Part shown: positions 59,445 through 64,000 of the stretch, in pieces
Layout of the letters: the number at the start of each line of letters is the position of its first letter
How positions within the stretch are numbered: position 1 is the first letter of the stretch
DNA from: Methanobacteriota archaeon
GTDB lineage: Archaea > Thermoplasmatota > Thermoplasmata > SG8-5 > JAGLSY01
Assembly (NCBI GenBank): GCA_020696385.1
Contig: JAEHCQ010000001.1
Span: forward strand, 512,001 to 576,000
Reading direction: 5' to 3'
DNA length: 64,000 nt
Notes under the pieces: model-generated
The model's input: the letters and a program-made list of their open reading frames with translations, nothing else
Database searches by the model: none
What the model was told of the DNA's origin: nothing
Program-made: the position numbers and the translations under genes

Positions 59445-59711
59445 CAATTCAGCTCCTGGGTTGATCATATACTTATTATAAGATTAACAATAAGTGATGA
59501 TATAAAAAGATATAGTTGGACAAATCTTGAGAGAGAGTGTGGAAGTGATGATGTTAAATTTAATTATTATTCAATATTATTAACGATAGTAATTGATTTA
59601 TTGTCAAAATGACCAGCCAGAATTATCCATATTGACACTTTTGACATATTCAATAACCGATAGGCTTTTATCATTATAGTGAACTATGGGAATCGAATTG
59701 GAGGAAGCTCA

Positions 59712-60407
59712 ATGAAGATCAAAAGAGTTAAGACCTTTATAAAGGGACTGGACAAGGAAATGAGTGGAGGCGTTCCAGAGGGTAGTGTTATACTTATAGC
59801 GGGAAAGCCTGGAACAATGAAATCTTCACTGGCTTTTAATATTCTGTATCACAATGCGAATATTGAAGATGTCAGTGGTGTCTATGTCACTTTGGAGCAG
59901 AGTAGAGAAAGCCTTTTGACCAATATGGACGGCCTGGGAATGAAGCTGGGCGGTCTGGAAAAAGAGATCAGTGTCCTTGATTTGGGAATGATAAGGAAGA
60001 AGCTCACCCAGCTCACCAATCAGACCTGGATGGAAGTCTTCAAGATGTACATCCAGAACCTGAAAAAGAACATGGACATCAAGGTCGTGGTAATTGATTC
60101 ATTACCAGTTCTGGAAGTCATGGCCAGGTTCCAGCATCCGAGAGAAGAATTATTCCATTTCTTCGAATGGCTGAGGGACATGGATGTCACAGCCTTCCTG
60201 ATAACCGAGATGCAGCAGGGATCGGACCAGTTCTGCAAGTACGATGAGGATTTCCTGTCGGATGGTATCATGCACCTTGACCTGAAAAGGGAAGGGAACC
60301 AAGTTAACTTATTCCTTGGTATTGTGAAGATGAGGCAGACCAGCCACAAGAGAGGGTATTCACCACTGATATTCGACAAGGATGGATTCGAGATAGTTTC
60401 GGATTAG
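59712..60407 (+). CDS. Single-domain KaiC/RAD55-like RecA-family ATPase
   Basis: VKT.I.GLD..M.GG.P, GKPGTMKS, YVTLEQ, VIDS, LITE, KMR.T.H. Confidence 0.88.
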   Translation: MKIKRVKTFIKGLDKEMSGGVPEGSVILIAGKPGTMKSSLAFNILYHNANIEDVSGVYVTLEQSRESLLTNMDGLGMKLGGLEKEISVLDLGMIRKKLTQLTNQTWMEVFKMYIQNLKKNMDIKVVVIDSLPVLEVMARFQHPREELFHFFEWLRDMDVTAFLITEMQQGSDQFCKYDEDFLSDGIMHLDLKREGNQVNLFLGIVKMRQTSHKRGYSPLIFDKDGFEIVSD

Positions 60408-60726: not shown

Positions 60727-61920
60727 TCAATTCTTGGCCATGAGGAAGAACACTATGGCCGGGAAGACCAGCAGACCACCGATGACCATCATATTGCCCG
60801 GACCCATGGAATCCGTAAATAGTGAAATTACCACATCTCCAATAAGCAAGCCGATCGCGAAAACCATGTTCTTAAAGGATCCCATTGTCGCTCTGATCTC
60901 CGTTGGGAGGATATTCTGGAAATAAGGCTCGAATATCGGGCCAAAGGTCGACCATCGTATACTAAGAATTATGAGCACCAATGCGGCCAGCCAGGCCATG
61001 TCTACGAAGAAGATAATGACCATGACGAGGCCGAAAATAAGAGTGTGTACTGCGAGATACACACTCTTTTTCTTCGCTCTTTGGCCAATGGCCTTGGCAA
61101 GGAAGGGGATCCCGACACAGATCGCCGCGCCTATCGCGGTTATGTATCCGAAGAACTCGCGAGGAATGCCCATGACCTCCATGTAAGGCTGCCTGAGGAT
61201 CATGATGAACTCCCCACTCAGTGCGATGAATATCATGGCCAACAGTATGTAGAACACCTGCTTGTCACTGATAGAGAATCTCGCCCCCTCTCTGATATTC
61301 TGGCCAGTTTGTTTCATCGTTCCCCTGAGGTTCATTTTCGTGGGTACATGATGCTCCTTCTGCATTGCCAGAATGGGAAGGGTGGCAAGCATGGATATCC
61401 CACTGATATACCACACCATGTCCATACTCCAGTATTTCACTACAAGACCGGCCATTATGGATGCGAATATGAAACCCAGCATATTTATGGACTGGTCCTT
61501 GGCAAAGAAGTCATCTATCAGATCTTCTCTGTCAACTGCCTTGAAATTGTCCACCACCCAGGCCTCGACAGCCCCGGATATGAGAGTGACTGGCAACCCC
61601 CAGGCTGTGAATACGATTATCAGCAATATTGGGTCAGTGATGCTCGGGATGATCAGGAGAACGGATGCGAATCCAATGTAGCCAAGAATGGTCGATGCCT
61701 TGCGACCGAAAGCATCGGCCAATGCCCCAGTGGGAACTTCCAGCAGGGTCATTGAAAGCCCATTGAGACCCAGGGCGATGCCAATCACGGCAAAAGAAAA
61801 ACCCTGGTCCATGAGAAAGACTACCCAGTAGATCCAGATAAGGGCAAAACTGGATTCCAATATACTGTGAAGATAGAAAAGCTTGGTATGCTGTAATTCC
61901 CCGTCCTTGAATAGTCTCAT
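60727..61920 (-). CDS. MFS transporter
   Basis: About 12 TMs; LEVPTGALADAFGRK (motif A), SGA.EAW..D, RAT..S. Confidence 0.9.
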   Translation of the reverse strand: MRLFKDGELQHTKLFYLHSILESSFALIWIYWVVFLMDQGFSFAVIGIALGLNGLSMTLLEVPTGALADAFGRKASTILGYIGFASVLLIIPSITDPILLIIVFTAWGLPVTLISGAVEAWVVDNFKAVDREDLIDDFFAKDQSINMLGFIFASIMAGLVVKYWSMDMVWYISGISMLATLPILAMQKEHHVPTKMNLRGTMKQTGQNIREGARFSISDKQVFYILLAMIFIALSGEFIMILRQPYMEVMGIPREFFGYITAIGAAICVGIPFLAKAIGQRAKKKSVYLAVHTLIFGLVMVIIFFVDMAWLAALVLIILSIRWSTFGPIFEPYFQNILPTEIRATMGSFKNMVFAIGLLIGDVVISLFTDSMGPGNMMVIGGLLVFPAIVFFLMAKN

Positions 61921-62039: not shown

Positions 62040-64000
62040 ATGAGCTTGGAAGGTTTTATTGGACGGGAGAAGAAACTGGCTGATCTTAGAGAAGGACTAA
62101 ATAAAGCTATAGAGGGAAAGGGAAATACCATCTTGATCTCTGGAGAGGCAGGTCTGGGAAAGACCACATTGATAAGGAAATTCCTAGCCTCTTCACCCAA
62201 TGATCCATTAGCTGTACTTTCTGGTACAGCATTGGAAGAATCATCTGAACCATTCCAGATATTCTCAAGAGCTCTTTCAAATAGGGGTAATAAACCTCTA
62301 TTTGAACAACATGAATACAGATCTTTTACCGAACTCTTTGCAGTAGATAGGGCAGGCATACTTGTAGGACAGGCGGCCCCGGATGATGAAGGACTGGATG
62401 GCGACATATTTGCAGGCATGCTCTCCGCAGTTCAGGATTTTGTAAGGGATTCTTTCGATAGGAGTTTGGAGAACAAAAATACCCTAGGTCGTTTGGAATA
62501 CGGCAATATGAAAATAATAATCGAACATGGAAATCATATCTTCTTAACAGCGGTTTTTACTGGCTCGGAACATGAGAACATGAAATCCACGGTTCGCAAC
62601 TCTTTGGATAGGATCGAGAGCAAATATGGCCATATACTAGAAAACTGGTCTGGCGATACAAGGGATATCAAAGGGATACAGGAGGAGATCGTTCTTCTAG
62701 CCCGATCGAAGTTCCTAGTTCGAAAGAGCCTGGAAGGTATAATCCTGGAACAGGAGAGGACCAGGATAGCGGAGGAGGTACTGGAGACCCTTCATGCTCT
62801 AAGCAGTGACAAGAGCATGATATTGCTATTAGAGGATCTTCAATGGGCTGATGAATCCTCGATATTTGTCCTGAATTATATATCAAGGAACATTCGAGAC
62901 CGAAGAATCATGATATTGGGCACCCTTAGACCCCGAGAAGGAAAACATGTGCTGGATGCCTTAGAGGACATCAGAAAGTATGGTGGGATCAATGTTTTGG
63001 ACCTGGATAAATTCGATGAAGGGGACATTGAAGATCTGACCTCTGCTCTTTTCCCCAATAATAAATTTCCAAAAGATTTTCTTGTAGACATGGCATCACA
63101 GAGTGGCGGTAATCCTTTTTTCGCTTCCGAGCTCCTGAAATCACTTAGGGGCAGCGGTAGCATTGTGGAGAAGGACGGCAAATACTATCTTGATGATGAT
63201 GACATATCGATGCCAGATTCCATAGAGGCTGTGGTGCATCATAGATTGGAAATGCTCGATTCCAGCTCTTTGTCCATGATGGAATTCGCATCCTGCGTGG
63301 GAAAGGAGTTCGACAGTGAGATATTATTATCCTCCGTCTCACTGAAGGAACCTGAAATTGTAATTGAAAGGATGAACAAAACAGGAATATTTACCAGGAT
63401 CAATGGCATAGATCAATTCGCCCATGCCATGTTCCAGAGCATCGTGTACGACAGCCTGCCAGAAAGATGGAAGATGCTCCATCACAAGGAGATCGGTGAG
63501 TGGTACGAGAAGGAATATGCATCCAAACAGGACGAGGCGATCTATGAGCTGGCGAGACATTTCTCCAATTCAAGGGAGCATACGAAGTGCTTTAATTATT
63601 GTAGATTAGCTGGCGAGAAAGCAGAAAGCTCTTTCTCACCTGACTTTGCCACGGAATTTTACATGAAGGCCGTGGACGTGATACCTAAGATGAAATTAGG
63701 ACCTCAGGCCAAAGGTCAGGAGTTCATGCTCTTGGAAAGGGTGGGTGAAATGAAAGGCCTGCTAGGATCTTCTGACAGTTCCCTTGAGACTTATTCCAGG
63801 GCACTTGATTCTGCAGAGGATGATGCATCAAAGGCCCGGATACATAGGCGCAGGGCTTACATCATGACAACGCATGGACAATTTGATGATGCGTTAGCTG
63901 AGCTTGATACTGCCGATACTTTGCTTGAGGGCACGGACCATGATGAAATGGGATTCTTGCTCATAGCCAGATCTTTCGTGAACCTGAATAAAGGGCACTT
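62040..64000 (+). CDS. STAND (AAA_16-type) NTPase-TPR protein with inserted longin/roadblock-like domain; truncated by the window end and absent from the ORF track
   Basis: GGAGG SD, ATG 62040; MSLEGFIGREKKL, GEAGLGKT, LLLEDLQWAD, SGGNPFF, F.HA.F...VY, ELARHF, helical repeats; no stop codon seen before 64000. Confidence 0.88.
   Translation, partial: MSLEGFIGREKKLADLREGLNKAIEGKGNTILISGEAGLGKTTLIRKFLASSPNDPLAVLSGTALEESSEPFQIFSRALSNRGNKPLFEQHEYRSFTELFAVDRAGILVGQAAPDDEGLDGDIFAGMLSAVQDFVRDSFDRSLENKNTLGRLEYGNMKIIIEHGNHIFLTAVFTGSEHENMKSTVRNSLDRIESKYGHILENWSGDTRDIKGIQEEIVLLARSKFLVRKSLEGIILEQERTRIAEEVLETLHALSSDKSMILLLEDLQWADESSIFVLNYISRNIRDRRIMILGTLRPREGKHVLDALEDIRKYGGINVLDLDKFDEGDIEDLTSALFPNNKFPKDFLVDMASQSGGNPFFASELLKSLRGSGSIVEKDGKYYLDDDDISMPDSIEAVVHHRLEMLDSSSLSMMEFASCVGKEFDSEILLSSVSLKEPEIVIERMNKTGIFTRINGIDQFAHAMFQSIVYDSLPERWKMLHHKEIGEWYEKEYASKQDEAIYELARHFSNSREHTKCFNYCRLAGEKAESSFSPDFATEFYMKAVDVIPKMKLGPQAKGQEFMLLERVGEMKGLLGSSDSSLETYSRALDSAEDDASKARIHRRRAYIMTTHGQFDDALAELDTADTLLEGTDHDEMGFLLIARSFVNLNKGH

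Follow-up and report, generated by a model that had tools for sequence, protein, structure and literature searches.

The window analyzed here is a 64,000-nucleotide stretch of an archaeal contig (G000:C11:512001-576000), and it ends within a gene for a STAND ATPase (signal transduction ATPase with numerous domains). The open reading frame (ORF) opens at an ATG at position 62040 on the forward strand and passes the window end, with 653 residues encoded inside the window. A first-pass annotation, made from the letters alone, had noted that the gene runs off the window, and in the contig it does continue, for another 958 nucleotides to C11:576958, giving a full protein of 972 residues (C11:574040-576958). 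The gene product belongs to the cytoplasmic STAND ATPases of AAA_16/MalT-like type and has a tetratricopeptide repeat (TPR) sensor at its C terminus; its sole additional module is a longin-like domain (LLD) that lies within the P-loop domain. The features of the gene, with the evidence that defines each, are:

62040..64000, + strand: STAND(AAA_16)-LLD-TPR gene, 5′ 1961 nucleotides in the window (ORF, genome placement, Pfam)
62040..62309, + strand: N-terminal half of the P-loop domain, residues 1-90 (AlphaFold2 (AF2) model of residues 1-480; AAA_16 match)
62142..62165, + strand: Walker A, GEAGLGKT, residues 35-42 (ORF, 56-homolog alignment)
62310..62324, + strand: entry strand of the insert, residues 91-95 (DSSP strand in the AF2 model)
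62325..62702, + strand: LLD, residues 96-221 (AF2 models, fold searches, family alignment A1)
62709..62723, + strand: exit strand of the insert, KFLVR, residues 224-228 (alignment, AF2 model)
62724..63059, + strand: C-terminal half of the P-loop domain, residues 229-340 (alignment, AF2 model, paralog comparison)
62820..62852, + strand: Walker B, ILLLEDLQWAD, residues 261-271 (ORF, 56-homolog alignment)
63060..63479, + strand: helical arm with GNPFF (residues 357-361) and winged-helix-like region (residues ~395-480) (alignment, AF2, Foldseek)
63480..64000, + strand: start of the helical/TPR sensor region, which runs to residue 972 beyond the window (Pfam TPR families)

Pfam identified the ATPase as AAA_16 (PF13191; 64.5 bits against a cut-off of 32.6), with the match split into two stretches, the best of which covers residues 6-134, and placed TPR families (TPR_12, TPR_1, TPR_MalT, and others) over residues ~560-950. 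In an alignment of 56 homologs, G35, G38, G40, and K41 of Walker A are invariant, D266 and W269 of Walker B are almost invariant, and R297 and the GNPFF motif of the STAND module are invariant or almost so. Because these positions are so well conserved, the ATPase is probably active. We modeled residues 1-480 with AF2 from the same 56 homologs (predicted local distance difference test score, pLDDT, 85.5). The N-terminal half of the P-loop domain consists of a helix (10-24), strand 1 (29-34), Walker A, a helix (41-51), and strand 2 (58-63); the C-terminal half has a long helix (233-254), the Walker B strand (260-265), a strand (290-296) followed by R297, and a further strand (317-321). The best Foldseek match of this model was PH0952 (6mfv_A, E 1.4e-7), and Orc/Cdc6, CED-4, Avs3, and RuvBL1/2 were also matched; the TM scores of these matches are low (0.3-0.4), the multi-domain nature of the model being the cause. 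The first-pass annotation had stated that the protein has no N-terminal effector domain, and we likewise found no effector domain with Pfam or in the AF2 model, in which the helix at residues 10-24 is all that precedes strand 1 and the P-loop.

The inserted domain and its fold

Walker A and Walker B are separated by ~220 residues, and about 159 residues between them are extra material. A paralog in the same genome (C11:14251-16716; 821 residues) has no insert: it aligns to residues 6-79 and 239-876 of the window protein, carries an acidic low-complexity linker of ~60 residues at the insert position, and gives a contiguous AAA_16 match (its residues 13-201, corresponding to model positions 2-165). 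Because this paralog aligns on both sides of the extra segment and its AAA_16 match is contiguous, the segment is an insertion; in the model it forms a module of its own, placed after strand 2 and before the Walker B strand. In homologs, the AAA_16 match spans the insert (residues 6-287, model positions 1-165). A short helix precedes the entry strand in the model of residues 1-480, and this strand is predicted to pair with the exit strand, in which F225 and V227 are almost invariant in the homolog alignment, to form a two-stranded neck.

Within the LLD, the secondary structure elements are b1 (98-103), b2 (108-112), a1 (121-140), b3 (151-154), b4 (157-163), b5 (167-174), a2 (181-201), and a3 (207-221). 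The first-pass annotation had described a module of ~110 residues between Walker A and Walker B, at 62322-62657 (residues 95-206), with a beta-beta-alpha-beta-beta-beta-alpha pattern. Such a module is present, with a core that folds by itself, and the predicted secondary structure agrees with that pattern and adds one further helix; the proposed end has to be moved to residue 221 (position 62702), which brings in the second C-terminal helix.

An AF2 model of the LLD, made from alignment A1 of 19 copies from the source genome, had a pLDDT of 86.6 and a predicted template modeling score of 0.80, with the order beta-beta-alpha-beta-beta-beta-alpha-alpha. We compared this model exhaustively with 48161 Protein Data Bank (PDB) representative chains using VIA-align, for which the typical best Z of unmatched models is 7-8. 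The first longin domain of Fuzzy (7q3d_C; Z 12.3, 120 residues aligned, root-mean-square deviation 2.7, model residues 2..129) and the longin domain of VAMP7 (4afi_B; Z 12.3) scored highest, and MglB (3t1r_A; 109 residues aligned) and Asgard Roadblock3 (9jue_D) followed at Z 12.1 each. Further longin matches were 2vx8_A (Z 11.8) and 3egd_C (Z 11.2), and Sec22, Mon1-Ccz1, LAMTOR, and adaptor sigma/mu subunits ranked next. In total, 61 chains had Z>=8, and almost all of them are longin, roadblock, or adaptor sigma/mu domains. Foldseek returned 79 matches at E<=0.001, with MglB first (6hjm).

The top longin and roadblock rows are tied within 1 Z unit; the longin rows span the whole LLD model, and the roadblock rows end near residue 110. 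DSSP assignment of both AF2 models shows that the LLD begins with a strand, so that the N-terminal helix of the roadblock order (a-b-b-a-b-b-b) is not present, and both models have the longin order (b-b-a-b-b-b-a-a). This arrangement, with C-terminal helices and no N-terminal one, matches that given for longin domains in the relevant passages of PMC10933270 and PMC3747258. On the evidence of the models, the insert is a longin-like domain of the roadblock/longin superfamily, with longin topology. We call it longin-like because it belongs to the fold and reaches no curated sequence family. The fold proposed in the first-pass annotation, longin/roadblock-like, is the one returned at the top of both structure searches; an insert that is a regular part of AAA_16, or one with an unrelated fold, was not found.

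For the window LLD, searches of Pfam (at E<=10), NCBIfam, and PDB profiles gave chance-level matches only, and there was no match to any Pfam longin family or to Robl_LC7 (PF03259). Several stand-alone LLD proteins of relatives do score against Robl_LC7, at 23-29 bits versus a cut-off of 23, exactly where the LLD profile matches. The nearest clusters in the ESM Atlas are unnamed archaeal ones (0.92), and an Asgard "Roadblock/LAMTOR2" cluster, 22% of whose members carry Fuz_longin_1, stands at 0.87 and is a lead only. The precomputed Pfam lists of 104 LLD database proteins contain no roadblock/longin family. These proteins, mostly from Thermoplasmata archaea, are named "tetratricopeptide repeat protein," "AAA family ATPase," "predicted ATPase," or "hypothetical."

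The LLD family and its association with Rab-like GTPases

The source genome contains 21 genes detected with the LLD profile, and the window segment itself recurs at 20 further sites there, with E values of 1e-10 to 1e-50, far beyond chance. Eleven of the 21 genes encode STAND-TPR paralogs, all with Walker A. The others include two giant surface proteins (signal-like N terminus, one transmembrane helix, C-terminal LLD), a protein with six transmembrane helices and the LLD at its C terminus, and DUF835-LLD-TPR, HerA(DUF87)-LLD, coiled-coil, stand-alone (with a zinc ribbon), and two other forms. One STAND-like LLD paralog has no P-loop (G000:C22:244512-246944, L085); AAA_16 is detectable in it as a C-terminal tail only, and this paralog may have degenerated and lost its ATPase activity.

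Among the 11 paralogs, mean identity is 43% in the LLD, 34-35% in the ATPase halves, 32% in the winged-helix region, and 30% in the TPRs. Conservation inside the LLD peaks at a1 and b3 (3.6 and 3.9 bits) and is lowest in a2/a3 (1.8-2.0 bits; 81 STAND-type copies).

A search of 1.84 billion cluster representatives with the LLD profile found 6256 proteins at E<=0.001, of which 4360 reach E<=1e-10. Among the best 150 matches, 70 have Walker A <=140 residues upstream of the LLD, 39 have a transmembrane helix followed by a C-terminal LLD, 4 have a transmembrane helix, the LLD, and further sequence, 5 are short, and 32 are of other kinds, many with 2-3 LLD repeats, CARDB, and DUF5915; this ranking is skewed toward STAND types, which make up 11 of the 19 profile rows. 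The group with repeats includes P0003-P0023, proteins of 1100-2400 residues with 2-3 LLD repeats, CARDB, and a C-terminal DUF5915, none of which explains the repeats. The LLD is present in 29 of 31 related genomes (those of the order have about 10-26 copies each) and in 35 of the 201 genomes of an even sample of the phylum (25 of 112 genera). A related-locus scan with the single protein had given four loci, two of them true relatives. The architecture had been put forward in the first-pass annotation as one not known to be characterized. Undescribed in print it appears to be; singular it is not, for the genome has 11 paralogs and at least 70 of the 150 top-ranked database clusters share it.

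We also examined the origin of the STAND-type copies. In the FastTree tree, one split (support 0.81) keeps 79 of the 81 STAND-type LLDs together, a quick IQ-TREE tree required five changes of state, and a single STAND-type clade was not rejected by the approximately unbiased test (p 0.528). These results are compatible with one insertion event followed by expansion, without proving it. STAND-LLD genes stand in tandem or near-tandem arrays at several places (four genes in G006:C20, three in G012:C6, three in G124:C24, and two in G000:C11:643806-652435), which points to recent local duplication of this sensor family.

Small GTPases had been suggested in the first-pass annotation as possible partners, and we identified candidates that are linked to the domain family by co-occurrence and neighborhood. 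Ten proteins of the source genome match the Ras family strongly (E 1e-26 to 1e-41) and have canonical G1-G5 motifs. For the one that was searched against the PDB (C50:8746-9273), the best sequence match was a Thorarchaeota Rab (E 3e-32), and the eukaryotic Rabs Rab21, Ypt6, and Rab1 came next; judged by sequence, the GTPases of the genome are Rab-like. Ras-family GTPases were found at E<=1e-15 in 37 of the 201 genomes of the phylum sample. In this sample, 34 genomes have both the LLD and a GTPase, 1 has the LLD only, 3 have a GTPase only, and 163 have neither, and the agreement also holds family by family.

At the level of gene neighborhoods, 3 of the 21 LLD genes of the source genome have a GTPase gene within 400 bp, compared with a random mean of 0.47 (P about 0.009). 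We inspected seven regions in five other genomes of the order: in six, one to three GTPase genes lie directly beside a receptor-type LLD gene, and in the seventh the GTPase and LLD genes are separated by a 1.9-kb gap. STAND-LLD-TPR genes directly adjoin GTPase genes in three distant genomes (L076, L077, and L080). Two of these loci, L077 and L080, are in genomes of different families, and each has a TPR-Ras fusion gene (L077:1237-2265, - strand; L080:2843-3865, + strand; N-terminal TPRs and a C-terminal G domain) divergent from the STAND-LLD-TPR gene.

Cassettes of one to three GTPase genes also directly adjoin genes whose products, membrane or surface proteins, have a cytoplasmic LLD at their end (C33:9982-14417, C49:32754-36000, C33:165654-167276, L038-L043), and these cassettes often pair a GTPase of ~275 residues, with a C-terminal extension of ~100 residues, with one of ~170 residues. 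In a genome-wide scan, the extension of the long GTPases, in which a Rag-like C-terminal roadblock was sought, had no match to the LLD profile at E<=0.001. Directly downstream of two tandem Ras-like GTPase genes is a gene for a V4R + DUF835 protein (G000:C44:30762-33094; L027:3763-6095). V4R is treated in part of PMC10933270 as a relative of TRAPPC3/Bet3, and the V4R + DUF835 protein may be a second TRAPP-like component linked to these GTPases.

The LLD as a candidate docking and output platform

We favor the interpretation, to which we assign a probability of roughly 0.55, that the LLD is a longin-type docking and output platform through which a TPR-sensing ATP switch is connected with signaling by Rab-like GTPases. 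The LLD is a candidate for the shared output because it is conserved while the TPR sensors diverge and the protein has no other effector domain; it is a candidate docking face because a1 and b3, which elsewhere are dimer and GTPase-binding elements, are its most conserved parts. In passages of PMC3747258, longin/roadblock pairs are described as dimerizing through b3 and a1, with GTPases bound to the single-helix face. By the same b3/a1 contact, two LLDs would form a platform like those of MglB, Ragulator, TRAPP, and Mon1-Ccz1, and the single-helix face of this platform would bind a Rab-like GTPase, the LLD tail of a membrane receptor, or both. Binding of a ligand by the TPRs would lead to ATP-dependent STAND assembly and bring the LLDs together, and in this way the ATP switch would act on the GTPase switch. 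The reverse direction is also conceivable, with GTPase docking near the nucleotide site gating the ATPase; the position of the LLD next to the Walker B helix would permit the two nucleotide switches to be coupled in either direction, and the LLD may, as proposed in the first-pass annotation, control the nucleotide switch. The 11 paralogs, with conserved LLDs and diverged TPRs, would then be parallel sensors that feed into one shared GTPase network, which would also take in the surface receptors with LLD tails. More tentatively, and at somewhat less than even odds, we suggest that this non-Asgard, Thermoplasmatota-type lineage runs a eukaryote-style network in which receptors and STAND ATPases load or unload ~10 Rab-like GTPases via the LLD; the V4R (Bet3-like)-DUF835 proteins and the KaiC-like ATPases could be further parts of such a network.

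Several observations weigh against a platform for GTPases. The co-occurrence was counted over related, non-independent genomes and so has no probability attached to it, and it could reflect a shared "large signaling repertoire" rather than a direct partnership. None of the 11 STAND-type LLD genes of the source genome lies within 8 kb of a GTPase gene, and the GTPase gene nearest to the window gene is >500 kb away; the window gene sits among housekeeping genes, the KaiC-like ATPase gene excepted. The seven inspected regions were chosen for close-lying matches and illustrate the link rather than measure it. In an unselected count of match-to-match distances in the five relatives, 8 of 53 GTPase genes are <=2 kb from an LLD match (about 2.3 expected) and 14 of 53 are <=6 kb from one (about 6 expected), a modest enrichment; this count is lowered because the LLD is at the far end of very long genes. 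Sequence-level homology of the LLD to roadblock and longin families is weak: among the 19 genome copies, two touch Robl_LC7 (best E 0.064) and one touches Fuz_longin_1 (E 0.057, under the cut-off). An hhalign comparison of the LLD profile with 18 local roadblock proteins aligned 62 columns in a plausible register at a probability of 13.9% (E 0.002); as this probability is too weak, sequence homology of the LLD to roadblock by hhalign is not claimed. Longin and roadblock folds also bind partners other than GTPases, such as SNAREs and dynein.

The b3/a1 elements most conserved in the LLD are those through which longin and roadblock domains dimerize (PMC3747258), and a single domain carried by receptors, STAND ATPases, DUF835 proteins, and HerA-like proteins is adaptor-like. 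The LLD might then be a homotypic adaptor only, with LLD-LLD heterodimers joining receptor tails to STAND ATPases, as death-fold and TIR domains do in pathways of nucleotide-binding leucine-rich-repeat (NLR) proteins, and with GTPases acting elsewhere in the pathway without touching the LLD. The location of the STAND-type genes of the source genome, not beside GTPase genes, fits such an arrangement, which we regard as unlikely but worth serious attention. On its own it leaves unexplained both the near-perfect co-occurrence of LLDs with Rab-like GTPases and the operon-like cassettes of GTPase and LLD genes. As dimerization and GTPase docking go together in the known systems, the adaptor function is more a part of the platform interpretation than an alternative to it. 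A passive structural or oligomerization element, a lineage-specific decoration of the variable AAA_16 linker, would be in keeping with the tolerance of AAA_16 proteins for variable linkers at this position, which is occupied by acidic low-complexity sequence in the insert-less paralog. We give this very little credence, as the LLD is autonomous, is reused in at least six other architectures, and is under stronger constraint than the ATPase itself.

Two further possibilities assign the protein a different input or target. The LLD could be a sensor of small molecules or peptides, with a GAF/PAS-like pocket that gates the ATPase allosterically and only an indirect link to GTPases; its place inside the P-loop domain, beside the Walker B helix, would be a good site for allosteric input, and the V4R protein, from a small-molecule-binding family, occurs in the same neighborhoods. 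This is improbable, given that the top structural matches are all protein-docking longin, roadblock, and adaptor domains, that the TPRs already provide a sensor, and that a most-conserved LLD with diverging TPRs is the pattern of a shared output and not of a varied input. The STAND + TPR architecture, the multi-copy family with tandem arrays in relatives, and the presence of Avs3 and CED-4 among the Foldseek matches of the nucleotide-binding oligomerization domain (NOD) module could alternatively suggest an antiviral, NLR/Avs-like defense sensor, with the LLD as an effector or as a decoy for a viral protein. Yet Pfam and the AF2 model show no nuclease, protease, TIR, or other killing domain, PADLOC returned generic TPR matches only, the neighbors are housekeeping genes rather than a defense island, and conservation of the family extends across an order, where orthologs keep their gene context; we consider a role in defense improbable.

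The closest known counterparts of the LLD are MglB/MglA and the longin platforms of eukaryotes and Asgard archaea (Mon1-Ccz1, TRAPP C1/C4, CPLANE Fuzzy, VAMP7/Sec22, AP sigma/mu). With MglB the LLD has its fold core in common (3t1r_A, Z 12.1; 6hjm, top in Foldseek), LLD genes, taken as a family, are linked to small GTPase genes, and some stand-alone LLDs of relatives pass the Robl_LC7 cut-off. However, the LLD lacks the roadblock N-terminal helix and has two C-terminal helices, the candidate partner GTPases are Rab-like rather than MglA-like, and the LLD is embedded in an ATPase, whereas MglB is a free dimeric protein. The longin platforms align in bbabbbaa order over the whole LLD (7q3d_C, 4afi_B, 9rs7_A, and 8yqg_B, Z 10.4-12.3) and are likewise associated with Rab-type GTPases, but the LLD reaches no longin Pfam family, and its host is a Thermoplasmatota-type archaeon and not an Asgard archaeon.

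The remainder of the protein resembles PH0952 of Pyrococcus horikoshii (6mfv), AfsR, and MalT-type regulators, which have AAA_16 and a MalT-like TPR region; AfsR and PH0952 match the TPR part of the window protein by sequence. Those proteins have a short linker where the window protein has a whole domain, and they have DNA-binding or other effector domains where it has none. RuvBL1/RuvBL2 (Rvb1/2), which are prominent among the Foldseek matches of the model of the NOD plus insert, are P-loop AAA+ ATPases in which Walker A and Walker B are likewise separated by an inserted whole domain. Their insert is the OB-fold (oligonucleotide/oligosaccharide-binding) domain II, not a longin fold, and they are hexameric AAA+ proteins rather than STAND proteins, with no known link to GTPases. 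The components of a conservon are a membrane sensor (histidine-kinase-like), a roadblock protein, and a small Ras-like GTPase. Such a cassette of sensor, roadblock fold, and Ras-like GTPase resembles the cassettes of receptor-LLD and GTPase genes, but its parts are separate proteins, whereas the LLD is fused to a receptor tail or embedded in a STAND ATPase. The actinobacterial conservon is named in a passage of PMC4316618. The STAND insert and the receptor-tail architectures are not among the Asgard GTPase-longin/roadblock fusions described in the consulted passages of PMC10933270.

An AAA_16 STAND-TPR protein and a longin/roadblock fold are each of an already known kind. A 2013 review described prokaryotes as being without longin domains (PMC3747258); longin domains have since been found in Asgard archaea, where they are counted as eukaryotic signature proteins, and the same account states, in part, that the GTPases of an Asgard archaeon are not generally operon-linked to roadblock/longin genes (PMC10933270). 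Coupling of Rup-type GTPases to MglB is given as 0/121 in an excerpt of PMC4316618, and single Rab-like proteins in a Thermoplasmatales archaeon and in Aciduliprofundum are mentioned in a passage of PMC4915359. Full-text searches, with subscription journals and supplements outside their scope, found no published longin/roadblock domain inside a STAND ATPase and no published cassettes of LLD receptors and GTPases in Thermoplasmatota. Three things are thus apparently undescribed: a STAND ATPase whose P-loop domain contains a complete longin-type domain, an LLD family as large and as varied in architecture as this one outside Asgard archaea, and the probable coupling of the LLD to Rab-like GTPases and surface receptors.

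The LLD defines a family of longin topology with thousands of members in another archaeal phylum, unannotated by Pfam and NCBIfam, and it gives a name and a testable role to archaeal proteins now labeled "TPR protein," "AAA family ATPase," or "hypothetical." As a STAND/NLR design it would be new in having a candidate output domain within the nucleotide-binding domain and not at a terminus. The neighboring LLD and GTPase genes offer tractable, operon-defined candidate pairs of regulator and GTPase, which are lacking according to a portion of the Asgard work (PMC10933270). If the lineage does run the eukaryote-style network suggested above, the pairing of longin domains with Rab proteins for regulation would be neither an innovation of eukaryotes and Asgard archaea nor confined to membrane traffic, and with its platform embedded in the P-loop domain the STAND protein would couple an ATP switch directly to a GTP switch in a novel manner.

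Neighbors of the window gene

The window gene has genes for Pus10, a KaiC-like ATPase, a major facilitator superfamily (MFS) transporter, an M50 peptidase, the Lhr helicase, and an M20 peptidase as its neighbors. Two of these were compared with the orthologous locus of a same-genus genome (L034; 78% identical):

59679..60407, + strand: single-domain KaiC-like ATPase gene (ORF, sister-genome locus L034)
60727..61920, - strand: MFS transporter gene, between the KaiC-like and STAND genes (ORF, sister-genome locus L034)

We found no counterpart of the MFS transporter gene at the same place in L034, which points to a recent local gain or loss, and the gene is probably not part of the system. In L034 the KaiC-like gene is directly upstream of the orthologous STAND-LLD gene. 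The source genome contains about 10 single-domain KaiC-like paralogs (including C11:50190-50891 and C22:164921-165625), one of which lies 62 bp from a GTPase gene pair and another 40 bp upstream of a different LLD gene.

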